Shown here piece after piece: positions 1,312 to 23,384 of a stretch of DNA of 27,427 nucleotides. The notes below the pieces were generated by a model. The model ran no database searches. It saw only the letters and a list, made by a program, of their open reading frames with translations, and was not told where the DNA came from. The stretch is from an uncultured delta proteobacterium (GTDB lineage: Bacteria > Desulfobacterota > WTBG01 > CAIYCZ01): NCBI GenBank assembly GCA_963803975.1, contig CAWDOY010000026.1, forward strand, positions 1 through 27,427, read 5' to 3'. Numbering within the stretch: the stretch's first letter is position 1; each line of letters opens with the position of its first letter. The position numbers and the translations under genes were made by a program.

Positions 1312-1316
1312 TTTAT

Positions 1317-1553: not shown

Positions 1554-1566
1554 TTTACCTCTCGCC

Positions 1567-2013
1567 ATGGAACTGATTGAATACAGCCTGAAAAACTCCC
1601 TGGGCCACATGATGGGCCGGATATCGCGGTCCATACTCAGCCAGCTGCAGAAAAGCTTTACCACTGCAGGCTGTGACCTTTCGGTAGAGCAGTGGCTGCT
1701 GCTGGTACATCTCAGGGACTGGGACGGGCAGATTCATCAGCAGCTGGCGCAGAGTACCTACCGGGACAAAACAACCATTACGCGCCTTTTAGACGGACTG
1801 GAAAAGCGCGGGCTGGTTGAGCGCATACCTGATATTGCAGACCGCCGGCAGAAGAGGGTCCGTATCATGCCGGAAGGCAGAAAGCTGATCAATAAGCTGA
1901 AACCGCTGGCTTTAAAGATACAGAATAAAGCCCTGGAAGATATTGCCCTCCAGGAAATAGATATGTGCAAAAATATTCTTTCCAGGATTTTCCAGAACAT
2001 TTCAAGCACCTGA
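1567..2013 (+). CDS. MarR-family transcriptional regulator
   Basis: LSVEQWLLL...HQQLAQSTYRDKTTITRLLDGLEKRGLVERIPDIADRRQKRVRI; the longer track ORF runs through the promoter, so ATG 1567 is preferred. Confidence 0.92.
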   Translation: MELIEYSLKNSLGHMMGRISRSILSQLQKSFTTAGCDLSVEQWLLLVHLRDWDGQIHQQLAQSTYRDKTTITRLLDGLEKRGLVERIPDIADRRQKRVRIMPEGRKLINKLKPLALKIQNKALEDIALQEIDMCKNILSRIFQNISST

Positions 2014-2065
2014 CAGCAAAGAAACAGCAGCAGCCTAACCGTGAAAAGGTAGAGGAGAATAACAG

Positions 2066-2872: not shown

Positions 2873-2880
2873 TGATCAAG

Positions 2881-2943
2881 AGCTGTCAGCTTTCAGCCGT
2901 CAGCTATCAGGTAATACTTTAAATGTACTGAAGGCTGACAGCT
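2881..2943. repeat. Heptamer tandem array with inverted partner (intergenic hairpin)
   Basis: agctgtc-agctttc-agccgtc-agctatc followed by ctgaaggctgacagct. Confidence 0.8.
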
Positions 2944-2967
2944 TTTCCAAGAAAGGAGTATCATACA

Positions 2968-4743
2968 ATGTTTAAAGGCGGATACCACGGACGTTACGTG
3001 ATGGTTGATTTAACCAGCAAAAGCTACAGCATCAAGGAGTTGCCGGAAAATCTCGCCGCAGAGTATCTTGGCGGCAGGGGCATCGGCACGAAGCTTCTGT
3101 ATGACCTGCAACCGGGGCATGTTGATCCGCTGTCCCCGGAAAACAATCTGATCATTTTCACCGGTCCGCTGAATGGCACCAATGCGCCCGGAACTTCACG
3201 CATTACCTTTATCACCAAATCCCCCTCGAGCAATACCATCAACACAACCAGCATGGGCGGGTCTTTCCCCAACGGGTTCAAGCGTACCGGCTTTGACGGC
3301 CTGGTAATAACCGGTAAGTCGCAGGAGCGAATCTGGATTCATCTCACACCTGACGGGGTCAGCTTTCATAATGCGGATGATGTTTGGGGGCTGAAGACCT
3401 CTGATACCGACAAGGCCATAAAGGAAAAGCTTGGCGGTAAATGCCGGGTGGCATGTACCGGCCCTGCGGGCGAGAACCTGGTGCGGTTCGCGGCAATCGT
3501 GTCCGAGACCCGCACCGCGGGCCGCGGCGGCGCCGGCGCGGTAATGGGCTCAAAGAACCTCAAGGCAATTGCCGTGTCCGGAGACGAGAGGCCGCAGATC
3601 GCTGACAAGCAGGCGTTTGATGAGGCGGTAAAGAAGGTGCGCGCCGACCAGGAAGAAAACCCGAGCCTGGTGGGGATGCAGATGAACGGGACCGCGGGGC
3701 TCATCAGCGTGGTTAATGCCATGGGCGGCCTGCCCACCAGAAACTTTCAGACCGGCACGTTTGAAGCAGCTGATGAGATAGCGGGAAGCGCTATCACCGA
3801 GCACAACCGGATTAAAAATTTCGCCTGCCAGTCCTGCCCGGTTGGCTGCGGGCTCATTGCCGAAGTTAAAAGCGGGCCGCGGGCCGGCCTCACAACTGAG
3901 GGCCCTGAGTATGAATCAGCGGTGATGCTGGGGTCAAATATCGGCATCGGCGACCGGGATATCATAATCGCTGAGAACTATATGTGCGATGAGTTCGGCC
4001 TGGACACTATTTCAACCGGCAATGTGATCGGCTTTGCCATGGAATGCTATGAAAAAGGGCTGCTGACTGATAAAGATACCGGCGGCCTGGCGCTTAAATG
4101 GGGAGACGGCGAGCTTGCCCTCAAGCTTATAGAAATGATCGCCAGAAAGGAAGGGATCGGCAGGCGCCTGGCAGAAGGTGTCGCACGGCTCGCACAAGAT
4201 ATTCCGGGCTCCGAGACTTTTGCCATGCATGTAAAGGGATTAGAGCTTGCGGCCTATGACCCGCGGGCTGTTTTCGGCCAGGGGCTTTCCTATGCCACTG
4301 CCCCGCGCGGCGGCGAGCATGGCCGCGGCGGGTACATGATAGTAGAGTTTTTCATGCCGGAGGTTGACCTGTACACCCATGAGGGAAAGGCAGAGCGGGC
4401 GGCGATGCTTGCCGAGAATGCCACGATTTTTGACTCAGCAAGCCTGTGCAGCTTCAACTTTGTGCCGGTGGCGCTTGTTCCGGAGCTGATTAACGCAGCG
4501 GCCGGAACCGCCCTTACGCTGGATGATCTTCGCACCATCATGCGCAGAATCATAGCGCTTGAGCGCACGTTCAATCTGCGCGAAGGCTTCAGCAGGAAAG
4601 ATGATACGCTGCCGCCGCGGCTGCTGAATGAGCCACTGCCTGAGGGCATGGCTGAAGGCAAAAAAGTGGAAGGTCTTGATCTCATGCTCGATGACTACTT
4701 TGCCATCAGAGGCTGGAGCAAAGAGGGCGTACCGCCGGCGTAA
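2968..4743 (+). CDS. aor: Aldehyde:ferredoxin oxidoreductase family (tungstopterin, 4Fe-4S)
   Basis: YLGGRGIG, GPAGENLVRFA, RTAGRGGAGAVMGSKNLKAIAV, CQSCPVGC, EGPEYE, CDEFGLDTIS, HVKGLELAAYDPR, DDTLPPR; RBS AAGGAG. Confidence 0.96.
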   Translation: MFKGGYHGRYVMVDLTSKSYSIKELPENLAAEYLGGRGIGTKLLYDLQPGHVDPLSPENNLIIFTGPLNGTNAPGTSRITFITKSPSSNTINTTSMGGSFPNGFKRTGFDGLVITGKSQERIWIHLTPDGVSFHNADDVWGLKTSDTDKAIKEKLGGKCRVACTGPAGENLVRFAAIVSETRTAGRGGAGAVMGSKNLKAIAVSGDERPQIADKQAFDEAVKKVRADQEENPSLVGMQMNGTAGLISVVNAMGGLPTRNFQTGTFEAADEIAGSAITEHNRIKNFACQSCPVGCGLIAEVKSGPRAGLTTEGPEYESAVMLGSNIGIGDRDIIIAENYMCDEFGLDTISTGNVIGFAMECYEKGLLTDKDTGGLALKWGDGELALKLIEMIARKEGIGRRLAEGVARLAQDIPGSETFAMHVKGLELAAYDPRAVFGQGLSYATAPRGGEHGRGGYMIVEFFMPEVDLYTHEGKAERAAMLAENATIFDSASLCSFNFVPVALVPELINAAAGTALTLDDLRTIMRRIIALERTFNLREGFSRKDDTLPPRLLNEPLPEGMAEGKKVEGLDLMLDDYFAIRGWSKEGVPPA

Positions 4744-4758
4744 GAGACATGCGGATAC

Positions 4759-4827
4759 AGTACTGAGTGCTGAGCGATGAGTGCCGAGTTTTTCCTGCTC
4801 ACTACTCAGCACTCGTTACTCATAACT
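4759..4827. repeat. Heptamer tandem array with inverted partner
   Basis: agtactg-agtgctg-agcgatg-agtgccg versus actactc-agcactc-gttactc-ataact. Confidence 0.8.
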
Positions 4828-4849
4828 AAACTTTAACGGGGAGGGACCC

Positions 4850-6310
4850 ATGGCACCATTTGATTCTTTGAGAGACTACGCAGAAGCTTTGGAGAAGCGG
4901 GGCAAGTTCATAAGAATAAAAGAGATGGACCAGGACAAGTACGAGGCGACTGCGTTTTACTACAAGCTCATGGATCGATATAAAACAAATGCACCGGGTT
5001 TTCTTATCGAGAGAATGAAAATAAACGGGAAATGGTATGAAACACCGGTTGTGGGAAACATTTTCTGCGGGTTTGACACTGTTGCGCAGTGTTTCGGGGT
5101 GGAGAAAATATCTGATAATCAGGCGGAGATGCATACTGTCGCCGTGGAAAAGATCATGAGCTGCCTGGTGAACGGTAAATGGAAAACCATTGATCCGGTT
5201 GTGGTGGATAGAAAGAACGCCCCCTGCAAGGAAGTTATTCTGAAGGGAGCCGGGGCAGACCTCTCAAAATTTCCGTGGGTAAAAAATAATCCTGATGATG
5301 GAGGCCAATACATCAGCGCCGGTTCTTTCATCATGGAGGACCCGGAGCTTGGCAGAAATGTCGGCACCTATCGCATGCAGGTAAAGGGGCCGCACAAAAC
5401 CGGATCCTATTTTACTAACCAGAGCCACGGCTACCGGTTTATCGCCAGGGCAGGTGATCGCGGCGAAGACAAGGTGGATGTTGCAGTGGCAGTCGGCATT
5501 GATCCCATTTCCTGGATGATGAGCAGCACCAGACTGGCGGATCTGGGGGAGGATGAATTTGCTGTAGCCGGAGGATTCAGGGGCAAGCCCGTGGAGCTGG
5601 TAAAGTGCGAAACCAATGATCTCTATGTTCCGGCTCATGCCGAGTATGTGATTGAGGGTGAAGTCCCTATGGATATTGAGAAGGAGGGACCCTATGGCGA
5701 GATGCTGGGCTATATCGGAAAACAGACCAACACGCTCTACATGAACGTGAAGGCAATCACCCACCGGAAAAACCCCTGGGTGTACAATAACTGGCCGGGC
5801 ATCGGCGGCGGCTACATGACGCTTCCCTGGGATGTGGGAAACCTCATTCGCCTGAAGCGCATGATGCCGAACCTGCTCAAGCTGTATACTCCGCCGGAAA
5901 CAGCTTCCCTGTCTATTGTCTGTATTGACAAGAAGTTTCCCGGTGAAGGTATTGAGGCCGGCATGATGATACTCGGCTACCGCCTGGTGGGATTCAGTAA
6001 AAAGATGGTTATTGTTGTGGACAAGGATGTCGAGCCGACGGACCTGGCGCGGGTGTTCCATGCCATGGGCACACGGTGGCAGCCGGTGCCGGCAAGCCTG
6101 CTCGTGCACCACTCGTTCCACATTCCCATTGACCCGAGCATAAGGGAAGATTTCCTGAGCAGCAAAATCGTGATTGACGCGACGCGGCAGCTGCCCGGCG
6201 AGGGCGGCCCGGAAGTATTTCCGGCAGACAACCGCACGGTCATGGAAGAGAAAGCAAAAGAAGCGTTTGATCTGGTAGAGAAGAACTGGGGGAAATATTT
6301 CCAGAAATGA
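4850..6310 (+). CDS. UbiD-family (prFMN-dependent) decarboxylase/carboxylase
   Basis: DGGQYI, NVGTYRMQV, PVELVKCETNDLYVPAHAEYVIEG, EGPYGEMLGY, IVVDKDV, KIVIDAT. No ubiX in the window. Confidence 0.93.
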   Translation: MAPFDSLRDYAEALEKRGKFIRIKEMDQDKYEATAFYYKLMDRYKTNAPGFLIERMKINGKWYETPVVGNIFCGFDTVAQCFGVEKISDNQAEMHTVAVEKIMSCLVNGKWKTIDPVVVDRKNAPCKEVILKGAGADLSKFPWVKNNPDDGGQYISAGSFIMEDPELGRNVGTYRMQVKGPHKTGSYFTNQSHGYRFIARAGDRGEDKVDVAVAVGIDPISWMMSSTRLADLGEDEFAVAGGFRGKPVELVKCETNDLYVPAHAEYVIEGEVPMDIEKEGPYGEMLGYIGKQTNTLYMNVKAITHRKNPWVYNNWPGIGGGYMTLPWDVGNLIRLKRMMPNLLKLYTPPETASLSIVCIDKKFPGEGIEAGMMILGYRLVGFSKKMVIVVDKDVEPTDLARVFHAMGTRWQPVPASLLVHHSFHIPIDPSIREDFLSSKIVIDATRQLPGEGGPEVFPADNRTVMEEKAKEAFDLVEKNWGKYFQK

Positions 6311-6317
6311 TATAATT

Positions 6318-6406
6318 CACCGCCGAGAGCGCCCCTCGGCCATGAGCAACTCGGCCTTGAGCTCGTTGCCGAAAGGCTCGGGGCCGAATGGCAGAGAGCT
6401 CAGAGA
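6318..6406. repeat. Nested REP-like palindrome inside a degenerate 9-mer repeat
   Basis: caccgccgagagcg ... gcagagagctcagag interrupted by cccctcggcc-atgagc-[tcggccttgagctcgttgccgaa]-ggctc-ggggccgaatgg. Confidence 0.6.
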
Positions 6407-6413
6407 TGGTAAC

Positions 6414-6670
6414 CAGAGGGTTTGCGAGCTTTATGAAATGGGCAGGGAAGAATTGTACGCAAGAGGGCGGCAGAAGCAGCGGGTGGAGGCCCGGAGCCTG
6501 ACCATATACTGGGCGGTTCGGGAATTGGGGCTAACGGGAATATCGCTTGCGAGGCGATATCATCTGACTCAGCCGAGTATTGTCTATGCCGTTCAAAGGG
6601 GCGAAAAGATAGCCCGGGAGGGGAGTTACCAACTGCTGAATTGAGTTGCTGATTTATTTATGGACGTCCC
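6414..6670 (+). pseudogene. C-terminal HTH remnant of a Y1/RAYT-like transposase with its probable 3' end motif
   Basis: RVCELYEMGREEL...VEARSLTIYWAVRELGLTGISLARRYHLTQPSIVYAVQRGEKIA resembles the DnaA-C-like tail of these transposases (from recall); no HUH domain; the ORF N-terminus is translated repeat DNA; TTATTTATGGACGTCCC follows the stop at 6644. Confidence 0.7.
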
Positions 6671-6729
6671 ATAGTTGTTCCTAAATGAACCATACCATCG
6701 GCAGAGAATGCAGTTTAAAATAGGCGCTG

Positions 6730-6765
6730 TTGTCCCTGTTTAAACAGGGACAAGAACAGGGACAA
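6730..6765. repeat. Perfect 24-bp palindrome plus a third half-site
   Basis: TTGTCCCTGTTTAAACAGGGACAA (6730-6753), then AACAGGGACAA (6755-6765). Confidence 0.85.
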
Positions 6766-6776
6766 AAATAGTGGCG

Positions 6777-6890
6777 ACTTCTTTTGCAAAGCGTAAGTGG
6801 CAGTCAATAAAATCACAGCAGTAGTCGCGCATTTTGATCATTAAGACACTACAATATATTGTAAAAAAGCAGGGCCATTTCTGACCCTGC
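6777..6890. repeat. Repeat A, copy 1 (~115 bp)
   Basis: ACTTCTTTTGCAAAGCG...CAATAAAATCACAGCAG...ACAATATATTGTAAAAAAGCAGGGCCATTTCTGACCCTGC aligns with 8445-8559. Confidence 0.85.
6863..6890 (-). terminator. Intrinsic terminator of the FN3 gene (part of repeat A)
   Basis: Minus strand GCAGGGTCA-GAAA-TGGCCCTGC-TTTTTT, about 35 nt after the stop at 6925. Confidence 0.8.
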
Positions 6891-6924: not shown

Positions 6925-7887
6925 CTATTTAACCTGAAAACTGGTTACAATAGTCTCCTCAAGAGAAGCATTAGTAAGATCGGTCTTAATAGTAATGTTC
7001 CACTGACCAGTTGATGCTCCACGCTCCACACACACCGGGATAAATATCAGATTGCCAGAAGAGAAAGCTTGCCGCTGTGAATCAAACGTTACCCCCTGTG
7101 CTTCTGCTCCATCCCCTGTTAACTCAATACTGCTTCCCTGTTGTGTAAAATGATGCTCTTGTGAGGAGTAGATAATCAGCCACAGACATTTCTTATCCAG
7201 CAGTATCGGACGCATGACCACCTTCCGCAGCAGGCTGGCTGCCGTAATGCTTACCACATCCCGGCACTGCTGTAACTCTTCCTTGCACACCTGCTCATCA
7301 CCACAGGGGTTCTGACCATTCACACACGTACCATTGATGCATTCTTCCGTTCCGTTGCAGAAAACCTTGTCATCGCAGTCAGCGTCTACGACACACACCG
7401 ATGGTGGAGCACTGGTGGTTGTCGAGGTTCTCGGATGGTGTCCGCCGCCACCGCCCCCTCCTCCACTGACTGAGGTTGTGGTTGATGTGGTTTTCGGCGG
7501 TATTGTCGTGGTGGTGGCTGCAGGGTTACTGTTATAGGAAATTTCTGCAGAATAATCGCTTTCTACAAGACTGGTGTTATACGAAGTTGCAGCAAAATAA
7601 TATGTCTGCCCTGCTGTTAGATTAGTAATAATGCAAGAGGTAGCAGTCTTGCCTATGACATCCTTGCTTTGAGTATAATTTCCCGAGGAAGCACCATAGT
7701 AGATTTTATAGCCCGCAATGTCCGGTTCATTATTTTGGTCCCAGCCTAATGTAACCTGAACAGCGTAAACATTATTTATGTTTATCAGGAAACATAATGA
7801 GATTACTATAAAAAAGGTGCTGAAACAAGATGAGCGATAAGCTAATGGTGTTGCAGTATTTGTTTGTATGTTTGATTTTTTAACCAC
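6925..7887 (-). CDS. Secreted fibronectin type III protein with Thr/Gly linker and Cys-rich module
   Basis: GTG 7887 after AAGGAGG; signal peptide ending VYA; VTLGWD..EPDIAGYKIYYG..SGNY..LTAGQTYYFAATSYN..ESDYS; TTTTT/GGGGGGGG linker; CVVDADCDDKVFCNGTEECINGTC. Confidence 0.9.
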   Translation of the reverse strand: MVKKSNIQTNTATPLAYRSSCFSTFFIVISLCFLININNVYAVQVTLGWDQNNEPDIAGYKIYYGASSGNYTQSKDVIGKTATSCIITNLTAGQTYYFAATSYNTSLVESDYSAEISYNSNPAATTTTIPPKTTSTTTSVSGGGGGGGGHHPRTSTTTSAPPSVCVVDADCDDKVFCNGTEECINGTCVNGQNPCGDEQVCKEELQQCRDVVSITAASLLRKVVMRPILLDKKCLWLIIYSSQEHHFTQQGSSIELTGDGAEAQGVTFDSQRQAFSSGNLIFIPVCVERGASTGQWNITIKTDLTNASLEETIVTSFQVK

Positions 7888-7941
7888 AGAAACCTCCTTA
7901 GGGTATTTCCGTGCGTAATACATCATCTGAAGAAGCACTGT

Positions 7942-8036
7942 ATGCGCTCGGCAACCCAGCTGCCATATCCTTTTGAAAAAATCTTAGGCCTGTGGCTTTG
8001 CGTCCTACCTTTGCAGGCAGTTTGCTTTTGCATTAA
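7942..8036 (-). ncRNA. Cyclic dinucleotide GEMM-I riboswitch, A20 variant (c-AMP-GMP / GEMM-Ib type)
   Basis: Minus strand AUGCAAAA-GC-AAA-CUGCCU-GCAA-AGGUAG-GAC-GC-AAA-GCCACAGG-CCUAAG...UAUGG-CAG-CUGGGUU-GCCGA: P2 with GNRA loop, GCAAAG junction, 11-nt receptor, conserved CCGA. Confidence 0.9.
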
Positions 8037-12936: not shown

Positions 12937-13383
12937 TTACGCTTCCAGCTTTTTGGAGACTGCTTTGCCGTACTCCTGGCACGCCCGCAGGCCGTCTCCG
13001 TGCTCCACCAGGTGCTCCAGCAGATTAAAAGCACCCAGTTCAACCATGTTCATCTTGTAGACATTCTCCATGGTGTCAAAAATTATCTTCGGCGCGTCGC
13101 CGCTGTGGGTGTAGGAGCCGAATGACCCGCCCACTTTTCCCGTAAGGCCTGCCTTATGCGCCATGAACAGAAAAGTTTCCATAATCGGCGGCATGGTCCG
13201 GTGATAGGTCGGGGAGCCGAACACATAGCCGTCATATCCCTGCAAATCTTTTTCCGTCTTGAGCTCTGTGATCTTCTTAACATCCGCGGCATTTCCCAGC
13301 ATGCGCACGCCTTCCGCAACATAGTCAGCCATCTGCTGGGTTTTACCCGTTCTGCTAATGTAGGCGATCAATACTTTTTTCAT
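12937..13383 (-). CDS. Flavodoxin-like protein (FprA C-terminal type)
   Basis: YISRTGKTQQMA, FGSPTYH, GKVGGSFGSY; GGAGG before ATG 13383. Confidence 0.9.
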   Translation of the reverse strand: MKKVLIAYISRTGKTQQMADYVAEGVRMLGNAADVKKITELKTEKDLQGYDGYVFGSPTYHRTMPPIMETFLFMAHKAGLTGKVGGSFGSYTHSGDAPKIIFDTMENVYKMNMVELGAFNLLEHLVEHGDGLRACQEYGKAVSKKLEA

Positions 13384-13615
13384 GGTTACCCTCCCGGTAT
13401 TTTGAATGTTCACATTGTGGTCAATTCAGAACTCAAAAACTCACGAAGATAAAAGCATAACAGATTCCTGATTTCCTGAGTTCCAGATTTTAAAATTTCT
13501 TGTGCTGTAGATAACATATATTATAAATAACCAATAATTTCAGGTTTTGCCAGGTACTTTTTTAGTTTTACATTTAAAAATATTTTGCTCTTGCAGTTTA
13601 CAGCGGACTTATTAT

Positions 13616-13647
13616 ATCATTCATACCGGACAGTCGGTATGAATGAT
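13616..13647. promoter_or_regulatory. TetR-type operator overlapping a candidate -10 (TATCAT 13615-13620)
   Basis: ATCATTCATACCG-GACAGT-CGGTATGAATGAT: perfect 13-bp arms, about 70 nt upstream of the cytochrome gene. Confidence 0.75.
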
Positions 13648-13715
13648 TTTGGAGGGTTTAGTATATACGGCTGGTGTTCTATTGAAAAAACTGGAGATCG
13701 AAAAAGGAGAAATAA

Positions 13716-14983
13716 ATGGGAAACAAGCACATGAAGGGGAGCTCTTTTATCTGTTTGCTTCTGGGAGCCGTTGTACTAATGGCACCGGGGTGCCAGAGGA
13801 AGCAGGCTATCTATGTGATAGGCGGTTATGGGTGGATGGCACAATTCATAGATCAGGATGGCAATGTTATAACTGACGGCGTGGATAGGACAAAAAGCCA
13901 GTATAACTTAGCCAACGAACTAATTGGCACATCTGCGCAATTTGTTGCCTATAAAACAGATCAGGCGGAGCCGAAGACATATGACTGCGGGGCCTGTCAC
14001 ACCACAGGCTTTACTCCAGAAGGTGAGCCACCAGATACAGATTATGTCGGTTCAACCACATGTATTGGTTGTCATCAAAGCTCAAACCCGTTCATCGTAA
14101 ATTCTTTTAAAGAACACGGACATCAGTTTAAGCTTAATGTCGTTAATGAAGCTCCTCCGGTTTACCCTGATTTTTGTTCTGGTGTGCCTGAACCCCCTGA
14201 TAAATTTACCTTTGGTACTACACCGCCACCGGAAGACCTGTTCACCTTGCCGGGCATACAAGGGCAGTGGGTTGAGCCAAATGTAGGGTGTGAGGCGTGC
14301 CATGGCCCCGGAAAAGAGCACCAAGCAAACCCTGCCGGGGTAAAGCCGCCGGGTGAGCCACAGACAGCCTGTGGCAAATGTCACATTACGGGCCCCCAGG
14401 TCAACGGAGTACCACAAGAAGACGGCGTAATTGAAGCAGATGGCAACCTCATGCTGCAGAGTCAGGAGTGGGAAGAGTGGGAAGCAAGCCCCCATAACGC
14501 AACAGGAGGTCCTCAGTGCGCAACATGTCATAACCCGCATGCCTCAACAATACATGATGATAAGGCAAAAGGGGATGGCCGGCGCGTGTATAGAAACCTT
14601 GATTGTCTGAAATGTCATCCGGGTATAAAGATAGGGCTTGGTATGTTTAACCTTATGTGCATTGACTGCCATATGCCCTACGCTGCTAAATCAGCAGTTA
14701 GCAAAGGCATTATCGGGAAAGAAGGAAATTATTCGTATGTGGGCGACGTGCGGTCGCATCAGTTTAAAATCAATGCCGCGGCAGAATCACCGAATGCCTT
14801 TTTTAACCCCGACCGCACGGCAGTGCAGCTTGACGCAAACGGCAAGGTGCCTGGGCTGACCCTCAATTTTGTATGTCAGCCATGCCACAGTTCGGGGGGG
14901 ATCAGGCCTCATTGCTTCCTGCGGCAACGCCATACACTTTTAATGAATTAAAAGTATTTGCGCCGCAAGTGCACGCTGAATAA
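13716..14983 (+). CDS. Octaheme c-type cytochrome, predicted lipoprotein; frameshift in G7 run near 14897
   Basis: Eight CxxCH (CGACH, CIGCH, CEACH, CGKCH, CATCH, CLKCH, CIDCH, CQPCH); LLLGAVVLMAPGC lipobox-like; adding one G gives ...GDQASLLPAATPYTFNELKVFAPQVHAE* ending 14983; RBS AAGGAG. Confidence 0.9.
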
Positions 14984-15126
14984 GCGCACAATATAAACCT
15001 GTTGCTGAACTGAAAAATGGCGTTTTGCAGCTTAAACCTTTTGAAGCGGTTTGCTTTCGGAGTATGATGAAGGACACTGAATGTAATTAAGACTAACGTT
15101 TTGAACAAGGTAAAAGGAGCGATACT

Positions 15127-16139
15127 ATGAACACAGGAATCTTGAAAAAGATAATAACCCTGCTGCCGGGATAGCACGACGCTCATTTATGAAGATCAGC
15201 GGGCTCTCAGTATTTTCGATGCTCGGCATTAACGGTGCAAAGAAGCTGTTTGCCGGCGAATACCAGGAGACGTGGAACGAATTCGGCTACGACGGCAATA
15301 TTCCCTGGTACTGGAATGAAAAGGGTTTTCCCGTCCACAAGACCGTGAATGTGAGCAAATTAAGCGAGGGGATCATCAGCGCACGGGTTGATAAGCGCTG
15401 GAGACAATTTAAGATAATTACACCGGATCAAAATTACCGCGATTTTGAAAGCAACGGCATGGTGAACATCTACAATAAGCTGCTGGAGGGAGTGGTCGCC
15501 ATGTTCGGCGGGGTTTATTGCCCCACCATAATATCCTACGGCGGGATACCGCGCGGAGACAGCAAATTTACCTTGAACGGCGCGTGCAAGTTCATGTTCC
15601 CCTGCCCGAAAGATGAGGCCACCGCGCAGACCATGATTGATACCCTAAAAGAGCTGGCTTCAAACTCGACAGAGCGTCGCAAATGGTTCAGAGACCAGTT
15701 TGCCAATCAGTATCTATGGGACTATTCAGGCCTGGTAGCCCGCGATGAAACAGTGTTAAATCCCGGCGAGGAAAAGGCTGATACCCTGTACCGCGAGACT
15801 CACACCTTCCGCAACCTGATGGAAAACCCGCTGGCGGTTATTCTGTTCGTATCAAACACGGATAATCAGAGTTACGAGCTGCGGACCATCGCCCATTATG
15901 TGCACAAAGATGATGAGACCGCCAATCCCTATGAACGCAAATTAGCAGAGTTCATAAATACCTACGCCAATGTCTCCCATGGCCTTAATGCCAACTTTCC
16001 GGCCATAATATTCCGCACGGTTGAAGAGTTCAACAACAGCATGGAAGTGGGGAAAGAGGGCACCCGTGTGGCACAGCTGGTGAACGGCGTAAAGAACATG
16101 TACGCCAGAATGCCCTGGAATAAGAGCAGTATCGGCTGA
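15127..16139 (+). CDS. Tat-exported protein, tentatively FMN/heme-binding split-barrel (PNPOx-like); frameshift right after the start
   Basis: AAAGGAG precedes ATG 15127. Upstream of the track ORF, in frame, is ..PAAGIARRSFMKISGLSVFSMLG (twin-arginine motif), reachable only by restoring one base. THTFRNLMENPLAVILF..SYELRTI resembles the split-barrel T..N...NP motif. Confidence 0.75.
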
Positions 16140-16197
16140 TTCAGCTGCTGGTAAAAAGCCCACGGGGATATTTGCCTGAAGGTAAAAAAACAATATC

Positions 16198-16246
16198 GTT
16201 ATGCTCTTCCGCCTTTATCGTGCGGAAGAGCATGACATGTTTTATC
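16198..16246 (+). terminator. Strong hairpin between the Tat gene and tetR (weak terminator or stability element)
   Basis: GTTATGCTCTTCCGC-ctttatcgt-GCGGAAGAGCATGAC then ATGTTTTAT. Confidence 0.5.
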
Positions 16247-16267
16247 CTGGCCCATAGCTTATACGTG

Positions 16268-16861
16268 ATGACCGCAAAAAAAGCGCCGGACATCCGCAAA
16301 GAAGAAATTTTTGAAGCAGCCCTGCACTGCTTTAACCACAAGGGATATTATGGTACCTCGATTGATGATATTGCGGCGCAGGCGGAGATTTCCAAGGGCG
16401 GCATCTACCATCACTTCTCTTCCAAGAAGAGCCTTTTTATAGAACTGTTCAACTCCCGGGTAAACCGCTATTTTGATGTGCTCAGGGCAAATATTGACAG
16501 CATCAATGACCCGGCAGAGCGCATCCAGGACTTTGTGGAGAAGTCAGAGCAGATTTTTCAGCAGAACCTTGACCTCCTGAAGTTCAGCCTTGAGTTCATG
16601 ACCCTCAGCACGCGCGACCCGGATATCAGGGAAGCGGTGACGCAGGTTTACCAGAACCGGGTGAATATATTTACCCGGATACTCACCGAGGGGATCGAGG
16701 CAGGATCATTTAAAGAGCTTGAAGCCGAGGCTGTTGCCCGGACCCTCTATTTTCTCTCCATGGGGTTTTTTCTCAACTATTTTACGGTCAATATTGATTT
16801 TGACCTGAAAAAGCAGCACAGCATTAATATGAAAACTATTCTTGAGGGAATTAAGAGATAA
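16268..16861 (+). CDS. TetR/AcrR-family regulator
   Basis: RKEEIFEAALHCFNHKGYYGTSIDDIAAQAEISKGGIYHHFSSKKSLF; ATG 16268. Confidence 0.95.
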   Translation: MTAKKAPDIRKEEIFEAALHCFNHKGYYGTSIDDIAAQAEISKGGIYHHFSSKKSLFIELFNSRVNRYFDVLRANIDSINDPAERIQDFVEKSEQIFQQNLDLLKFSLEFMTLSTRDPDIREAVTQVYQNRVNIFTRILTEGIEAGSFKELEAEAVARTLYFLSMGFFLNYFTVNIDFDLKKQHSINMKTILEGIKR

Positions 16862-17034
16862 GGGAGCAGCAGATGGTGTTGCAGCACCATAACGGCTGGT
16901 ACTGTCAAAAGTTTTATGAATAGTAAAAGAAGATATGCAACCACAGGACACAGAGATGAGGCAAGAGCATTTGCTGATCTGAAGGCTGACAGCAAATAAT
17001 TTCACGTTACTAAAACAACGAAAAGGAGCGCAGC

Positions 17035-17850
17035 ATGAGTAAAAGAACGATCGGTTTTATTATTATGGTAAGCCTTATCTGCTTTATCGGCTACCAGGGA
17101 ATGCTTTCAGCGGCGGACAAAAAGTCCCCGAAGGAGCAGGCGAAGACAGAAAAGGCAGCCAAGGCGAAAGCAATCGACACGTCGGCGACCCTTGACAACA
17201 CCCACCCGGAAGTGGAGGCAGGCTTTTCCTGCAATGACTGCCACGAGATAAAGCTTGACGCTAAAACAACCGCCACCCAGGTGTGGCTGTCCGGAGAATC
17301 TCCCGGCAAAAAAGCCGGCGAAGGCCTGATGCCGAAAGAAAAAGTCTGGGAAGCGGTCGTCAAGATCATCGGCGGCAAGAAAATGGAGTCCAAGACCTTC
17401 GTGCTTGGCACCTGTATGAACAATGTTCCGCTTACGACAACTGCCGAGTTTACCCTGGACCCGGTCAAAAAAGTGCTCTACGGATTCCATGAACCGGGCA
17501 CGGAAAAACTTATCCAGATAAAGAACAACCCCAGGGTGAGCCTCAACTGGCACCGTGAATTTGAGAGCTTCACGGACTTCTGCTGCATCCAGATAAAAGG
17601 CCGCGCAGAGCTGCTGGACGGGAAAAACCCCGAGTTTGAAAAGGTCCTTATCGAACTGCTGCCGTATGAGAATGGCGCACGCGTACCCAAGGATGCAACG
17701 CCGGAGCAGCGCGAGCTGCGGCTTAAGCAGTTCAGGGAAAGCCTGAAAAAGGGGTTTGTTATCAGTAAAATAACGATTGAGCAGGCAACCATGGCCAATT
17801 ATGCGTTTGCTACCGAGGGCTTCCGCAGGTACCAGCGCTGGACCCCGTAA
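17035..17850 (+). CDS. Exported monoheme c + PNPOx-like split-barrel fusion protein
   Basis: Signal peptide; HPEVEAGFSCNDCH; KTFVLGTC..NVP, TEKLIQIKNNPRVSLNW, IQIKGRAELL; RBS AAGGAG. Confidence 0.85.
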   Translation: MSKRTIGFIIMVSLICFIGYQGMLSAADKKSPKEQAKTEKAAKAKAIDTSATLDNTHPEVEAGFSCNDCHEIKLDAKTTATQVWLSGESPGKKAGEGLMPKEKVWEAVVKIIGGKKMESKTFVLGTCMNNVPLTTTAEFTLDPVKKVLYGFHEPGTEKLIQIKNNPRVSLNWHREFESFTDFCCIQIKGRAELLDGKNPEFEKVLIELLPYENGARVPKDATPEQRELRLKQFRESLKKGFVISKITIEQATMANYAFATEGFRRYQRWTP

Positions 17851-17881
17851 GCTCGCTCAGGTGCGCAGGCAATGATATAAA

Positions 17882-17993
17882 ACCACAGGGCACCGAGGTT
17901 ACAAGTTGGAAGAGTTAAGGAGTTACGAGTTCTGGAGTCTGTTAACTCCTGAACTCCTCGACTCCATTACTCATAAACTCAACGTTCTGTGGT
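17882..17993. repeat. Octamer-like tandem array with inverted partner, enclosed by ACCACAG/CTGTGGT
   Basis: gaagagtt-aaggagtt-acgagtt-ctggagtc versus aactcctg-aactcctc-gactccat-tactcata-aactc. Confidence 0.8.
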
Positions 17994-18034
17994 GTTGCTT
18001 TCATAATACTCAAGGGATTTAAAGGGAGAAATGC

Positions 18035-18839
18035 ATGAAAACAGTTGTCATAACCGGCAGCACCCGGGGTATCGGCCAGGGGCTTGCTGTAGAATTTCTA
18101 AAGCAGGGGTGCGCAGTTGTTATCAGCGGGCGGAGTGCGGGGGCAGTTGTAAAAGAGGTGCAGCGGCTGGCCGCGGATATACGGCAGCGACAAGGTTTCA
18201 GGCAGTGCCTGCGAGGTAACCGACAGCGTACAGGTGCAGGGCTTGTGGGACGCGGCACAAGCGGCATTCGGCAGGGTGGACATCTGGATTAACAATGCCG
18301 GCATCACCCACACGACAAAAGTGCTGGCTGAGCTGGACAGCTCTGAAATCAAACCGGTCATTGACACCAACATTACCGGCATGATCTACGGAAGCCAGGT
18401 GGCATTGCGCGGCATGATCAAGCAGGGGTTCGGTCAGCTTTACAACATGGAAGGCCACGGCAGTAATGATAAGAAACGGCCGGGCCTGAGTATCTATGGG
18501 ACATCGAAACGGGCGCTGAAGTATTTCACCGAGGCGCTCATCGAGGAAACAGAAGACGGGCCGGTGCAGGTCTGTTTTTTAAGCCCCGGCATTGTCATTA
18601 CCGATTTTCTGATTGAGGACATGCGCAAGATGTCGCCCGATGAGCTTGAGACCGTCAAAGCGGTTTATAACTGTTTGGCAGACACGGTAGAGACGGTAAC
18701 CCCGTACCTGGTTGAGAATATTCTGAAAAACGATGCGCACGGAGTTGAAATAGCCTGGCTCACCGACGAGAAAGCAAACGAGCGATTTAACTCGGATGAA
18801 TACTGCAGCAGGGATTTTTTCAGCAGATATGGCTTATAA
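18035..18839 (+). CDS. SDR of the chlorophyll(ide) b reductase NOL/NYC1-like subfamily; frameshift near 18178
   Basis: VVITGSTRGIG, GR (NADP-type), rejoined YGSDKVSGSACEVTD..VQGLWD, VDIWINNAG, GQLYNMEGHGS, YGTSKRAL, LSPGIVITDFL, NCLADTVETV; the NM(D/E)GxGS pattern is typical of that subfamily (from recall). Confidence 0.85.
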
Positions 18840-18896
18840 ATAAAAAATATGTCATAAACACCTATACGCAGTTTCATGCCGCAACAGGGTGAGGTA

Positions 18897-20126
18897 ATGA
18901 ATTCTCCGGCAACAAAACCTGAAGGTGCTTTGACGCGGGAAAAGCTGTGCAGCCTCTGCGGGCTGTGCATGGTGAAAGCCTGGTCTGCAAAAGAAGCAGT
19001 TCAGGGCTGTGTGTTTACCACCGGCTGGCTTGGCAGCAAGGAGCAGGCGCTGTTCGGGCGGGAGCGCGCCAGGGATGGTTCTGATGAGATGCTTTTTGGC
19101 ATCAGCACCGAGCGCTTTGTCGCGCGCATGAAAAACCCCCTGCCCGATATCCAGTTTACCGGGATCATAACCAGCATCGCAAAAAAAGCATTTGAGACCG
19201 GGCTGGTGGACGCGGTCGTGACCCTGCACCGCAGTAAGGAAGATTACTTTCTGCCGGTGCCGGTGCTGGCCCGCTCAACAGAAGAGATTTTAGCAAGCGG
19301 CGGCAGCAAGCCGGTGCTGGCACAGACCCTCACCTCTCTGGAAAAAGCCTGTCAGCAGGGAATAAAAAAGCTGCTGGTCATCGGCGCCTCCTGCCATGTG
19401 CAGAACCTGCGCGAGTTTCAGCGCCGCTCTCCCTATCTCAGGGACATGGACCTCTTTGTGGTCGGCATTCCCTGCACTGATAATGTCCACCCGAACCATT
19501 TTCGCTCTATCTTCAGCAAAATCTCCCGCTCCCACGAGACCGTCCGTCATTATGAATTTATGCAGGACTTCACGGTGCATCTCCGGCATGTTGACGGAAC
19601 CCTTGAGCGGGTACCGTTTTTCAGCCTGCCGCAGGATATCAACAGCGCGGAGCTTGTCACCTCCTGCTGCCGGAGCTGCTTTGACTATATGAACGGCCTT
19701 GCCGATATCACGGTCGGCTACATCGGCGCACCCCTTGATATTGAGAAAATGTACCAGTGGGTCCTGGTCAGGACGGAGAAGGGCGAGGAGCTGCGGCAGC
19801 TCATCGCTGATGAGCTTGAAACGTATCCTGAAACATCAGACGGAGACCGGACAGCGCTGGTCGGGCAGTATGCCCTGCGCTACAAAAAAGACGGGGCAGC
19901 GCAGGCCATAAAGATGTCGGGCAGCATGCCGCTGGAGCAGGGATTTGCGCTGGCGGAGCACTTTTATACCACCGGGCCGCGGGGACTTGAGTTCGTGCGC
20001 TACGCGATTGAGACCCATGTGATACGCAATTATTATTTTGTTAAGCAGAATTACCCGGAAAAACTCGCGGCACTGGTGCCGGGCTATGTATATTCAGTCC
20101 TGGAAGCTTATGGGCTGGAGCCGTAA
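18897..20126 (+). CDS. FrhB-family FAD/2x4Fe-4S reductase of the BciB (8-vinyl reductase) / HCAR clade
   Basis: LCSLCGLC..C, FGRER..DEMLFGI, QFTGII, KPVL, LLVIGASCH, GIPCTDN, HYEFMQDFTVH, VPFFSL, SCFDYMNGLADITVGY, QWVLVRTEKG, EFVRYAIETHVIRNY; GAGGT before ATG 18897. Confidence 0.9.
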   Translation: MNSPATKPEGALTREKLCSLCGLCMVKAWSAKEAVQGCVFTTGWLGSKEQALFGRERARDGSDEMLFGISTERFVARMKNPLPDIQFTGIITSIAKKAFETGLVDAVVTLHRSKEDYFLPVPVLARSTEEILASGGSKPVLAQTLTSLEKACQQGIKKLLVIGASCHVQNLREFQRRSPYLRDMDLFVVGIPCTDNVHPNHFRSIFSKISRSHETVRHYEFMQDFTVHLRHVDGTLERVPFFSLPQDINSAELVTSCCRSCFDYMNGLADITVGYIGAPLDIEKMYQWVLVRTEKGEELRQLIADELETYPETSDGDRTALVGQYALRYKKDGAAQAIKMSGSMPLEQGFALAEHFYTTGPRGLEFVRYAIETHVIRNYYFVKQNYPEKLAALVPGYVYSVLEAYGLEP

Positions 20127-20133
20127 ACAGAAT

Positions 20134-20291
20134 CAACAGGCTGTTGAAAAACACCCGTCTGCTGTGTTGCGCTCATCCTTCGTCATTGCGACGTACGCTA
20201 AGAGTACGCCTCATTCCTCAGAATTTCGCGCACCCTGCATCCGGATGTTTTTGACCAGCCTTGGAAAAAACTACTTTTCAACAACCTGCTG
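20134..20291. mobile_element. MITE-like 158-bp non-coding element
   Basis: Ends CAACAGGCTGTTGAAAA / TTTTCAACAACCTGCTG (15/17 inverted match), an internal second right end TTTTTGACCAGCCT, core GCGACGTAC..GTACGCCTC, AAT on both flanks. Confidence 0.8.
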
Positions 20292-20320
20292 AATTTCAAC
20301 CACGTACAGGAGAAAAGGCA

Positions 20321-22403
20321 ATGAAAGCAAAAAAAGTATATCTGCTGCTTACCATCATGCTGCTCGTGCCCTGCATCAGCATGGCTCAATCAACACCGGT
20401 CAAGGACAAGGTCGCGGTGCTGATTACCGGCTGGGGCATGCCTGCGGGGTATAACTTCGGCTATGCCTGGGCAAGCCCTGATCTTGCGCAGATCGGCGAT
20501 AAGACCGAGTCTGAGGGCCAGCCCTGCAAAATAGGGCATGTGGGAGAGTTCCCCTATCAGTCTCACATCAATTTTATTCCATGGTCAATTCTCTTTAAGA
20601 CAGCAGGCAATGAAAATTTTTATGACTCTTATGGCGTCTATAAACTTGAAAATGGTCAGTATGTAAGCCCGAACCCGGACATACCGCCGGTCAGCCCCGC
20701 GGATATCCCGGAGGGGATACCAATAACCCCCCTTAAGGACGTTACTGAATCAGGGGTGCTGAAGTACCCGGTTGACCCGAGAGACGGCATCGGATTATCT
20801 GGCCGGCTGGTTTCAGATAGGCACCTTTCAAAAACCCTATCCTAACGGGATTCATGACTTTAAAGAGTCCATGCCCGCGATCTATACCCGCTATTACGGG
20901 ATTATGGGCGTCCCGAAGGAAGCCGCCGACCCCAATGATCAGTACCCGGCAGTGCTCGCTCAGGATGCTTTTCTTGAACAGCTGATGAATGCTTCCTTCG
21001 GCGACAGCATTGATATGCGCTTCGGCGGTTATTCCCCGATACCCGGCTATACCAAGCGCGAGGATGACGCTGCCGCAGAGTTTGCCAATGAAGGCTTCAC
21101 AAAAATGCTTATTGCCCGGGAGACCACCGATAACAACCGCTACGCCAATGAATTCATGAGCGGCAATTATGTGAAGGAGCGCTTGTGTGAAATGGGCAAG
21201 CTGGACTGCATGCACATCCAGCAGACCCGCCAGGTGGGAAGAACGCCGGAATTTAACGCCATGAATATCCGCAACTTGAAGCCCTTCATCGAGGCCTACC
21301 CTGACGGCAGCACCATCGGCATCATCTATGTCACCCGGGGACTGCCCTGGGGAAAGGATGAAACCCCCGGAGCGTTCGGCACCGCGCACCCGTGGAGCAA
21401 GGAGGTCTATCACGAAAACGCCTATCTCAATTATCTCTCATTGAAGAAAGCGCTCAAGGCAGCATTCGGCAGCCGCTATAACCTGGTCTTCACCAGGGGC
21501 GGCATTGAAAGTGACCTGCGGGCGGACAATTTCTTTTCCTACGCGGTTAATAAAAAAAGTGAAAACGGCGGGGTCTTTATCAGCGTCCGGGACGCAATCC
21601 AGGCGCTGAAGCAGGACGGCGTCGATAAGATTGTCATTGCTCCCGGCCACTGGAACTATGACAATATTGATACCATCCTTTCGATGAAGCTTACCAATAA
21701 CCTGCCCATTACGCCCAAGGCGGACATACTGGCCAATAAAGTTTGATTATACCCACTGTGAAGACGCGGACGGAAATGTTGTTGCCTGCGACAGCCCGGA
21801 CAAAGCCGCGCAAATCACTGCCGCGTCCTCTTTCAGCAACCTTCCCGAGGAGTTTGCCACCGCGTATTACGTGGTGCTGAGGGGAACGCTGGAACGGTTC
21901 GGCCTCTATCCGCAGGATGCACCCGTCACTATTGCAGCACAGCAGCCAATTACCAAGCTTGACGGCGGAACCGTAGCGGTACAAAAATTTTTCAGCCTGA
22001 TCAACAAGGCAAAGATTGAGATTCCCCCGGACCCGTACCCTGACCGGCCGGAAAGTTTCACCAAGGAAACGGCAGTTCCCGTTAATGACCCGGCTGACAC
22101 TATGGATTGCCTCTGGGAGGATACGGTCATCTCAATAGGCCAGCCACTCAATCCGCCGGCCATGAAGACTGCCCGCGCTGTGGGCCCGCGGTTCACTTCG
22201 GCCCCTACCGCACCTTTTTCAACCGGGATGTAACAATTACGATCCCGTATCGAAGACTGCTTGCCCTGGGCAAAACGGTGAAGGCGTATGTCTATAACCA
22301 TGTGACCAAAGACTGGGACGCGCTGGAGGTGGAGAAAGCTGCGGGGGGAACGGTTACTTTTAAGACCAAGGTGCTTGGCCTGTTCCAGGCCGGGGTGGAA
22401 TAA
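20321..22403 (+). CDS. Exported protein with class II chelatase (HemH/CbiX)-like fold and ZU5-like C-terminus; frameshifts near 20790, 21742, 22190
   Basis: Signal peptide; KVAVLITGWGMP; DAAAEFANEGFTKMLI; IIYVTRGLP (HemH: LFSAHGLP); DAIQALKQDGVDKIVIAPGHWNYDNIDTI (HemH: V.P..F.SD..ET); tail GPAVHFGPYRTFFNRDVTITIPY..W. Four track ORFs join by single-base shifts. Confidence 0.7.
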
Positions 22404-22415
22404 CAGCGATGTAAC

Positions 22416-22450
22416 AAAAAAGGCCTCCGGAAAAAACGGGGGCCTTTTTT
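22416..22450 (+). terminator. Intrinsic (bidirectional) terminator closing the cluster
   Basis: AAAAAAGGCCTCCG-GAAAAAA-CGGGGGCCTTTTTT. Confidence 0.9.
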
Positions 22451-22531
22451 ATGTGCAGCGTTTTAAATTTGATTTGAAAAAGATTTCAGCTCCTGATAGC
22501 GTAGACATTATTTCCCCGGAGGGTGAAGGAC

Positions 22532-23384
22532 GTGATTGATAAAGACCTGATCGTCGCGGCAGTTAAAGAGCCCATGCGGCAGTACTGCCAGACCATGAAG
22601 CAGACCATCGGCGACTGGCAGCCGCTGCTTGCACGTGTCGGAAAAAATTCTAGCCGGCGAGGAAGTCAGAAATGACGAGGTCCAGCCGGAGCTGCAATTT
22701 CTGGTAGAGTGGATGCGGCTCATTATGGAGGTCACGCGGGACGGCCAGTGGGACTGGACCAGCCCCGCGGTGCAGGCAGTGTATAAAAATTATGCTGACA
22801 GCATGATTTATAAAACCTTTGCCCGGGCTACGGTCGGGATTGTTACCGCCATCCTGAAGACAGGGCAGGTCGGAACGGTGTTGGAAATAGGCACCGGCCC
22901 CGGCCAGGTTACCGAAGCGCTGTGCGGTGAGATGATAACCAATAATATTTCCGTGCCCATCATCATATCGGATAGAGCGCCCGGCATCGCGGTCGTGGCA
23001 GAAAATCTGCGAAAAAAATTCCCCGCCCTGTCCATCACAGATTTTGTCTGGAACATACGCGAAGACCCGCCGGAAGCGCTGGTTAAAAAGCTCGTTGGGC
23101 CGGTGTTACTGTTTGAGCGCTTCTGCATCCCCTATGGCGGCTATGAAGCCATCGATCGGGTTGCGCCGGTCGCGGATATTTATCTCATGGTGGAGGATCT
23201 GAACCTTACCGGAAAGAAAGAGGCCTATGATGTTATTTATGAGAAGATAGGCTCACAGTTTTTCACCTGGCAGGATACCAGGAAATATCTTGAAAAGCAT
23301 TTCTCCTTCATCCACACCTGTGACCAGGAAACAATTGACGCTATCAACCTGCCGGTAACAGACTTTACCCTTGCGATAAAATAA
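22532..23384 (+). CDS. Class I SAM-dependent methyltransferase-like protein; frameshift near 22638
   Basis: GTG 22532 after GGAGGGTGAAGGA (VIDKDLIVAAVKEPMRQYC...) joins the track ORF; motif I VLEIGTGPG, IISD, WNI. Confidence 0.7.

Follow-up and report, generated by a model that had tools for sequence, protein, structure and literature searches.

In the chlorophyll cycle of plants a formyl group is reduced by NOL/NYC1 to hydroxymethyl and then by HCAR to methyl, and BciB, the ferredoxin-dependent 8-vinyl reductase of green sulfur bacteria and cyanobacteria, is promiscuous towards the HCAR reaction. The early diagenesis of chlorophyll is treated by geochemistry as a largely abiotic affair. Homologues of bciB, chlLNB, bchXYZ, bchF and bchC have been described without reaction centres in the Desulfobacterota class 'Ca. 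Anaeropigmentia' (bioRxiv 10.1101/2021.03.22.436540); in the passages of that preprint available to us, these sediment and lake bacteria have no chlG and the genes are read as serving pigment biosynthesis. Here we describe a cluster of seven genes, among them one for a BciB/HCAR-family reductase, in contig CAWDOY010000026.1 from an uncultured delta proteobacterium of the Desulfobacterota (assembly GCA_963803975.1). The stretch analysed, here called the window, is the entire 27.4-kb contig; the genome is 98% complete and consists of 4.25 Mb in 57 contigs.

All seven genes lie on the plus strand between 13.6 and 22.5 kb, as had been proposed in an earlier note made from the letters of the window. 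In order, they encode an octahaem c-type cytochrome, a Tat-exported split-barrel protein (orf2), a TetR-family regulator, a second, Sec-exported split-barrel protein with a haem-c site, a classical short-chain dehydrogenase/reductase (SDR), the reductase, and an exported protein with a ferrochelatase-fold core (Table 1). The family labels given in that note were verified for six of the seven; the remaining one is indeed a classical SDR, but the label "NOL/NYC1-like" was left unconfirmed. Since four of the seven products belong to folds or families with known members that act on cyclic tetrapyrroles, three are exported, the repressor has a private candidate operator and the host is not a chlorophyll maker, we favour, tentatively and with somewhat less than even confidence, an inducible, TetR-controlled processing of an exogenous cyclic tetrapyrrole, the likeliest substrates being chlorins or porphyrins that derive from chlorophyll or bacteriochlorophyll and arrive in anoxic sediment. 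We infer the "chlorophyll-derived" nature of the substrate.

The reductase matches both FrhB_FdhB domains (PF04422, E 3.2e-18; PF04432, E 7.2e-25) and aligns over its full length with the solved Arabidopsis HCAR, 5dqr (E 8.7e-76, query residues 14-413 on chain residues 26-425). This match takes in the C-terminal extension, which is missing in F420-type FrhB; enzymes of the F420 type match the core alone (residues 93-310, E 2.5e-16 or weaker). The protein is 45-58% identical to BciB of the Chlorobiota (green sulfur bacteria), and some of its relatives have been named 8-vinyl reductase by JGI. Eight cysteines (C25, C28, C31, C45, C173, C200, C265 and C268) are invariant in 11 sequences and would serve two [4Fe-4S] clusters, the individual residues being provisionally assigned to one or the other. 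Membership in the BciB/HCAR family is confirmed at the level of sequence, and activity on a vinyl or hydroxymethyl group of a chlorin is predicted from it.

A tree of the reductase was built from 45 sequences found by a pattern-based scan (13 of Desulfobacterota type, seven of Chloroherpeton/Thermochlorobacter type, 22 of the 56 from Chlorobiaceae, and three from Chloroflexota), a sample in which cyanobacterial, proteobacterial and plant members are absent and from which the direction of transfer is not inferable. The Desulfobacterota and Chlorobiota sequences form one group against the Chloroflexota (support 100/100), and the Chlorobiota form a single clade (99/98); the Desulfobacterota make up two or three lineages that branch next to or beneath this clade, not nested inside it, in a weakly supported order. 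A 4.3-kb contig of a metagenome-assembled genome labelled Bacillota (L031) carries the end of the SDR gene, a reductase gene (product 80% identical to that of the window) and the chelatase-fold gene in the same order; its reductase branches within the Desulfobacterota clade, and the contig is probably mis-binned, or else reflects a recent transfer.

Several frames in the window are broken (see below), and folds and searches were therefore run with the intact orthologues of a same-genus locus (L011) and a same-family locus (L012). The model of the intact orthologue of the last gene product (pLDDT 89.7, pTM 0.88) has two domains. With VIA-align, residues 25-523 superimpose on the coproporphyrin ferrochelatase CpfC, 8aw7 (Z 24.8, rmsd 3.1, 303 of 309 residues), about 200 residues of insertions being accommodated in the core, and residues 533-693 form a ZU5-like beta-sandwich (Z 12.7). 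Foldseek matched the model to 1c1h (E 6.8e-9); among further fold matches are the human and yeast ferrochelatases (Z 22-23), SirB (16.6) and CbiK (16.0), with SirB, periplasmic CbiK and FetB all within Z 14-17. A class II chelatase fold is thus confirmed at fold level in the model, and chelatase activity may go with it. The strand motif VTRGLP, in which R335 is nearly invariant, resembles by eye what we take to be the His-bearing motif of ferrochelatases, with Arg instead of His, and is offered as a lead only.

Sequence searches said little about this protein. It has no Pfam match at E <= 0.01 and no NCBIfam match; when Pfam was searched at E <= 10 with 31 family members, no chelatase family appeared and ZU5 was weakly matched in 21 of the 31. 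A search of PDB sequences returned one chance-level match, and in the ESM Atlas it matches "hypothetical" clusters exclusively, whose names are uninformative. The 181 relatives found are all unnamed or "hypothetical", some of them with TSP3 or dockerin tails. Kinship to the CbiK of the same genome was tried by profile comparison with hhalign and rejected (probability 0.2).

At the site of the large operator proposed in the earlier note, a perfect 13-6-13 inverted repeat was confirmed at 13616-13647. The exact palindrome occurs once in the 4.25-Mb genome, and its 26-nt core pattern, with up to three mismatches allowed, has one match in the window, at this site, versus none in 100 shuffles. No second operator-like site was found in the window, where the half-site with up to two mismatches gave 5 matches against 2.1 expected. 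The same-genus genome keeps the arms around a different spacer (L011 3691-3716); no palindrome was found upstream of tetR in the same-family locus (L012). A TetR_N helix-turn-helix protein with a palindrome at its own locus makes a repressor with its operator the predicted arrangement, as far as sequence can tell. The terminator claimed for the end of the cluster also held, as a hairpin followed by a run of T at about 22416-22451: none of 200 shuffles folds equally well, though a scan for consensus terminators did not list it. No RNA family was found within the cluster by Rfam.

The genome of the host is that of a non-phototroph. Models of BchH, BchG, Photo_RC and PsaA/B have no match at E <= 0.001 in it, and the best matches to BchM (42.8 bits, cut-off 158.9) and BchL (207.9 bits, cut-off 345) fall short; judged by these models the bacterium has no (bacterio)chlorophyll pathway of phototroph type and is not a chlorophyll maker. 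The earlier statement that the window contains no bch/chl or reaction-centre gene stands as to the absence of bch genes, but bch-type homologues occur elsewhere in the genome: the check for them left BchH and the reaction centres unmatched and brought up a BchF-like gene and three DPOR-like N/B gene sets beside MarR genes. On contig C50, at about 21400-32300 (L110 7406-18288), a MarR gene, two NifH-like genes, an N-like gene and a B-like gene with the PCP_red tail of BchB are followed by genes for an unknown 355-aa protein, two Abhydrolase_5 proteins and an OYE/Pyr_redox_2 reductase; going by its families this is a DPOR/COR-like enzyme set in a genome without a Mg-chelatase match. On C3, at about 156900-167400 (L123 6896-17355), there are two N/B-like pairs whose N-like genes are broken by indels, together with a MarR gene, a 236-aa CbiX/ferrochelatase-like gene and one for an FAD-dependent oxidoreductase. 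A full-length homologue of the vinyl hydratase BchF (154 bits, cut-off 25) lies on C12 at 63865-64272 (L137 7863-8330), adjoining a convergent fragment of an aldehyde:ferredoxin oxidoreductase (AOR) gene. On C9 (183-7938; L138) an operon encodes Fer4_5 and AOR proteins, a 490-aa protein with 60% identity to the ferrochelatase-like protein of a relative, and two flavodoxin-like proteins; operons of this type run on into a BciB/HCAR-like gene in five distant relatives, though not on C9. A search for Staygreen, the Mg-dechelatase, gave no match, with a control that likewise matched in no genome. That the window is a mis-binned contig of Chlorobium or another phototroph was considered and rejected, as its nearest relatives and synteny are of Desulfobacterota and it carries a repeat with 94 hits in the genome.

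The SDR is recognized by adh_short in both halves of its broken gene and in the intact orthologue (E 1e-38), and its translations contain the motifs TGSTRGIG, NNAG and YGTSK (TGxxxGxG, NNAG and YxxxK). It belongs to a large family with members of exactly 267 aa. The names of its 120 best relatives and of the nearest ESM Atlas clusters are generic, leaving kinship to NOL/NYC1 unconfirmed. In 37 of 58 loci of Chlorobiaceae (L046-L108), an SDR gene whose product is 39-45% identical over its full length lies convergent to, and less than 600 bp from, bciB; it is about 4.6 kb away in four others, none is seen in ten, and the contig end is too near in seven. No such neighbour was found in the seven loci of Chloroherpeton/Thermochlorobacter type or in the three of Chloroflexota. 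The best match of the Chlorobium ferrooxidans SDR in the present genome is the SDR of the window (41%, versus 34% for the next). The pairing of SDR and BciB is therefore older, or more mobile, than this cluster; no description of it was found in the available parts of PMC3595025 or PMC13297055.

Two products have the split-barrel fold, orf2 by structural match and the haem-c barrel by PNPOx_N. The AlphaFold model of orf2 (pLDDT 81.2) has HupZ, 7kpz, as its top Foldseek match (E 2e-5, TMt 0.71-0.74), followed by PNPOx-like, F420-binding and haem-binding barrels; many of the fold matches listed bind FMN or F420. Orf2 has no Pfam match and its family is small (54 representatives at E <= 0.001). 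Its Tat motif precedes the listed ATG at 15189, and no ATG, GTG or TTG start was found 5' of the motif within the window; being exported by the Tat route, the protein is probably cofactor-loaded. The CxxCH of the other barrel, at residue 66, is invariant in five of five aligned homologues, two of them at only 28-30% identity, and a PDB sequence search with this barrel gave nothing at E <= 1. The cytochrome has a 419-aa orthologue in L011; the label "lipoprotein" given to it before has as its sole basis an ...APGC motif seen by eye and is kept as putative.

Conservation was followed in 41 related genomes, which through their kinship are not independent samples. A strong match to the reductase (E < 1e-90) was found in 14 of them. 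All seven genes stand together, with an extra flavodoxin-like gene, in the same-genus genome; of the seven, the same-family genome retains five, namely tetR and the genes for the haem-c barrel, SDR, reductase and chelatase-fold protein, along with a flavodoxin-like gene; two short contigs hold cut-off parts of the cluster in the same order; and in one genome of another family the SDR and reductase genes occur alone, followed by an AOR gene. Thus of the synteny that was to be looked for in Desulfobacterota, the full set proved limited to a single genus, but a five-gene core is found in the family and the SDR-reductase pair more widely. In distant Desulfobacterota the reductase gene lies in an operon with Fer4_5, AOR, a 471-aa ferrochelatase-like gene and two flavodoxin-like genes, to which single loci add a BchF-like, MarR, OprB porin, or 1302-aa CobN/Mg-chelatase-type gene; the loci with ferrochelatase-, flavodoxin-, BchF- or CobN-like neighbours are L035, L036, L045, L047 and L102. 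In L039 a B12-radical-SAM gene, the reductase gene, two homologues of the haem-c barrel and two alpha/beta-hydrolases are found together, and in L047 an orf2 homologue and a porin lie beside the reductase. A B-like gene is present in 12 of the 14 genomes with a strong reductase match and in 11 of the 27 others. The recurrence of such partners beside the reductase in distant relatives lends support, on the level of gene families, to a tetrapyrrole theme.

Table 1. Features of the cluster and its surroundings, in positions of the window.
Feature	Position	Strand	Basis
Flavodoxin, 158 aa, divergent neighbour	12937..13413	-	Pfam Flavodoxin_5 and Flavodoxin_1
Candidate TetR operator, perfect 13-nt inverted repeat with 6-nt spacer	13616..13647		palindrome search
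Octahaem c-type cytochrome, signal peptide	13716..14951	+	8 CxxCH; Pfam Cytochrome_C7, Cytochrom_c3_2, Paired_CXXCH_1
Tat-exported split-barrel protein, orf2	15141..16139	+	RRSFMK motif; AlphaFold model and Foldseek
TetR-family regulator	16268..16861	+	TetR_N, E 1.3e-17; start from 200-aa orthologue
Sec-exported split-barrel protein, one haem-c site (CNDCH)	17035..17850	+	PNPOx_N, 32.6 bits (cut-off 28.1)
Intergenic repeat with hairpin	17880..17990		15 blastn hits in genome
Classical SDR, 267 aa in relatives	18035..18839	+	adh_short on both halves; one extra base at ~18174
BciB/HCAR-family [4Fe-4S] flavoprotein reductase	18897..20126	+	FrhB_FdhB_N and FrhB_FdhB_C
Repeat of ~155 nt between reductase and chelatase-fold genes	20135..20295		94 blastn hits across the contigs of the genome
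Exported protein of ~693 aa, ferrochelatase-fold core and ZU5-like C-terminus	20321..22403	+	model of intact orthologue
Intrinsic-terminator-like hairpin and T-run	22416..22451	+	dG -22.7 kcal/mol, z -6.1

In the window the SDR gene breaks at about 18174, the chelatase-fold gene is spread over four frames (breaks at about 20789, 21741 and 22180) and the C-terminus of the cytochrome is frame-shifted at about 14911; compared with the same-genus locus, each of these breaks is an indel of one base. The indels at 14911, 18174, 20789, 21741, 22180 and 22632 are missing, depending on the site, in contigs of one to four of four public runs compared; the extra base at 18174 is missing in all four, and the X1 and X2 contigs have one additional T at 14911. 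As the contigs of other runs are without these indels, the breaks are most likely assembly errors. Gene decay as their main cause was rejected, since the genes are intact in those contigs and similarly split genes occur elsewhere in the genome. The start codons of tetR, the reductase gene and the chelatase-fold gene were re-placed, with some likelihood, at 16268, 18897 and 20321. In L011 the same-genus tetR (6153-6885) is itself in two frames, whether through an assembly error or in reality.

Near-identical DNA was found in 20 runs of 15 studies, mostly labelled as sediment or freshwater metagenome, two being without a habitat label. In the X2, X15 and X20 contigs, position 13644 is joined to 16260 through about 31 other letters, which puts the palindrome some 31 nt upstream of tetR; strains lacking the cytochrome and orf2 therefore occur in nature, and the same-family genome likewise has neither the cytochrome nor the Tat barrel. 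Contigs of two RNA-Seq libraries span tetR, the haem-c barrel, SDR, reductase and chelatase-fold genes and the downstream open reading frame (ORF) at 90-99% identity; those samples carry the short form, so that the lack of cover of the cytochrome and orf2 is uninformative on expression.

If the cluster acts as we tentatively suppose, TetR would occupy the 13-6-13 palindrome until released by the pigment or a derivative of it. Outside the cytoplasm, the ferrochelatase-shaped protein would bind the macrocycle and might remove or exchange its metal, while the two exported split barrels could hold or reduce it, possibly with electrons from the octahaem cytochrome. In the cytoplasm, the SDR would reduce a carbonyl (formyl or keto) to an alcohol, and the BciB/HCAR-type enzyme, receiving electrons from flavodoxin or ferredoxin via two [4Fe-4S] clusters and FAD, would convert vinyl to ethyl or hydroxymethyl to methyl. 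The gene divergent from the cluster encodes a flavodoxin, a candidate low-potential electron donor, whose conservation is 95% identity in the same-genus locus and 83% in the same-family locus. Such processing might serve as an electron sink, for detoxification or to salvage the macrocycle, and the cluster may be a route for the oxygen-free transformation of buried chlorophyll-like pigments.

A broader reading, which we regard as doubtful though possible, is that sediment Desulfobacterota carry out enzymatically the early "diagenetic" changes of chlorophylls and bacteriochlorophylls by means of recruited relatives of pigment-biosynthesis enzymes under several TetR and MarR loci, using the pigments as electron sinks or as a source of macrocycles. 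Demetallation would then take place outside the cell, and the reduction of vinyl to ethyl and of formyl or keto to alkyl groups inside it; the recruited enzymes would be BciB/HCAR, an SDR, and BchF-like and DPOR-like proteins.

A number of points weigh against the processing of an exogenous tetrapyrrole as we favour it. The nearest solved relatives of the TetR protein are of FadR, DarR and KstR2 type, with acyl-CoA-type or steroid-type ligands, and no haem-sensing regulator is among the best 60 of its 79 PDB sequence matches. Searches by sequence do not place the chelatase-fold protein in Ferrochelatase, CbiK or CbiX (PF00762, PF06180, PF01903), and its family is multi-copy, with four loci in this genome (three further paralogues). 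Present in 20 of the 41 related genomes, the family occurs in 11 of the 27 that have no strong match to the reductase and was not found in five of the 14 that do, and so is not coupled to the reductase. Gaps of 130-195 nt between genes, with repeat elements in some of them, make several transcripts possible, and contigs of RNA libraries may derive from carried-over DNA, strand and transcript ends not being visible in them. The cytochrome and orf2 together form a 2.6-kb presence/absence variant, just one genus has all seven genes as a set, and transporters are absent among the Pfam-matched genes of the window. Finally, the occurrence of a related SDR beside BciB in Chlorobiaceae, which make pigments, means that the pair may be biosynthetic. 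The inducible pathway for chlorophyll derivatives proposed in the earlier note has therefore fared unevenly: the families and folds do have a tetrapyrrole theme, but the set of seven genes does not extend beyond the genus.

The last of these points leads to the alternative that survives best, though we hold it to be unlikely, namely that the cluster tailors a tetrapyrrole pigment or cofactor, as yet unknown, that the cell itself makes, with the BciB-like enzyme, SDR, DPOR-like and BchF-like proteins at work in a non-photosynthetic biosynthesis. The same reading is given for 'Ca. Anaeropigmentia' in the available passages of the preprint (bioRxiv 10.1101/2021.03.22.436540). It would fit the three DPOR-like N/B sets with their PCP_red tail, the BchF-like gene (154 bits) and the CbiX/ferrochelatase-like genes of this genome, as well as the SDR beside BciB in 37 of the 58 loci of the pigment-synthesising Chlorobiaceae. 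Biosynthetic enzymes of tetrapyrroles are cytoplasmic, however, and three of the seven products here have export signals, with TSP3 or dockerin tails on homologues of the chelatase-fold protein; there is also no match above cut-off to a Mg-chelatase/CobN-type protein, BchM or BchG, and control by TetR and MarR repressors is, we would suppose, commoner in inducible catabolism or detoxification.

Acquisition or detoxification of haem, in which the exported proteins would capture haem and strip its iron and the cytoplasmic reductases would alter its vinyl groups, seems quite unlikely. The top structural match of orf2 is the haem-binding HupZ, and CbiK of D. vulgaris, which is periplasmic, and FetB of P. 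gingivalis, both with roles in handling haem, are among the fold matches of the exported protein; an enzyme of BciB type could, by established chemistry, act on the two vinyl groups of haem. The reductase, however, is nearest to chlorin-specific enzymes, the control is of TetR type, the BchF-like and PCP_red-tailed DPOR-like partners in the genome belong to chlorophyll-type families, and no TonB-type receptor or ABC importer is among the Pfam matches of the window.

Very unlikely, finally, is a non-tetrapyrrole substrate, an aromatic or otherwise conjugated compound whose carboxyl, aldehyde and alcohol groups would be reduced stepwise to methyl by the SDR, the HCAR-type reductase and AORs: an AOR does lie beside or near the reductase in six of eight distant loci (L034, L035, L036, L045, L047 and L102), an SDR-AOR-UbiD module with MarR genes is present in the window at 826-6310 and the TetR protein is akin to FadR-type regulators, but the AOR of the window is merely 37-42% identical to the reductase-linked ones, their true orthologue is on another contig without a reductase, the recurrent chelatase-fold, ferrochelatase-like, CobN-like and BchF-like neighbours indicate tetrapyrroles, and the characterised members of the BciB/HCAR subfamily all act, to our knowledge, on chlorins.

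The rest of the window holds several other elements. Two MarR genes, an SDR, an AOR, a UbiD-type decarboxylase gene and a small ORF make up a module of their own at 826-6644. At 7947-8036 on the minus strand, directly 5' of a minus-strand fibronectin type III ORF (6925-7938), stands a c-di-GMP-I riboswitch (74.7 bits, gathering score 35). The ORF at 22629-23384, downstream of the cluster, matches no family and shares 97% identity with its counterpart in the same genus, the genes of the cluster being far below this at 65-88%; near its start, at 22632, the contigs of other runs differ by one base. The depth of the repeat at 17880-17990 is raised in metagenome contigs, and two of its 15 hits are on contig C29, close to a chelatase-fold paralogue. 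The repeat of about 155 nt reaches a depth above 1000 in contigs of sediment metagenomes and is replaced in one X2 contig, where 20127 is joined to 20319, by 38 other letters; it looks like a miniature inverted-repeat transposable element (MITE) or a repetitive extragenic palindromic (REP)-like element.

Chlorophylls and bacteriochlorophylls carry nitrogen-rich, redox-active carbon into anoxic sediments in very large amounts, and their altered forms are classic biomarkers. Should the cluster and its sister loci act on such pigments, they would offer expressible enzymes with which oxygen-free vinyl reduction, side-chain deoxygenation and demetallation could be tested, and they would explain why bch-type genes recur in non-phototrophs; should the cluster make a new cofactor instead, it would open a new branch of tetrapyrrole biochemistry.

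As to earlier descriptions, a full-text literature search found neither an anaerobic bacterial chlorophyll-processing cluster nor this gene arrangement, the preprint on 'Ca. Anaeropigmentia' being, in its available passages, the sole near description. The claim that no such cluster had been described accordingly holds in that no paper on one was found, but is qualified by that preprint of 2021, which lists similar bch-type genes. Its passages share with the present genome the bch-type homologues without reaction centres in sediment Desulfobacterota; unlike the present analysis, they describe the presence of genes and not this cluster, its exported parts or its regulators. With the plant chlorophyll cycle the locus shares an SDR gene directly 5' of an HCAR-family gene, and the logic of formyl to hydroxymethyl to methyl would suit the pair; it differs from that cycle in belonging to a non-phototrophic bacterium and in having these genes clustered under TetR with those of exported proteins. 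To BciB the reductase is alike in identity, tree group, its eight cysteines and the adjacent SDR, whereas the hosts of BciB differ from the present one, in which Mg-chelatase H, BchM, BchG and reaction centres have no match above cut-off. The combination of a chelatase fold outside the cytoplasm with a split barrel recalls CbiK of D. vulgaris (2xvx), FetB of P. gingivalis (9b86) and HupZ (7kpz). Unlike CbiK and FetB, however, the protein here is far larger (693 aa) and nearer to ferrochelatase and CpfC (Z 24.8) than to CbiK (Z 16.0), and unlike HupZ, one of the barrels has a motif for covalent haem c and a Tat signal marks the other.

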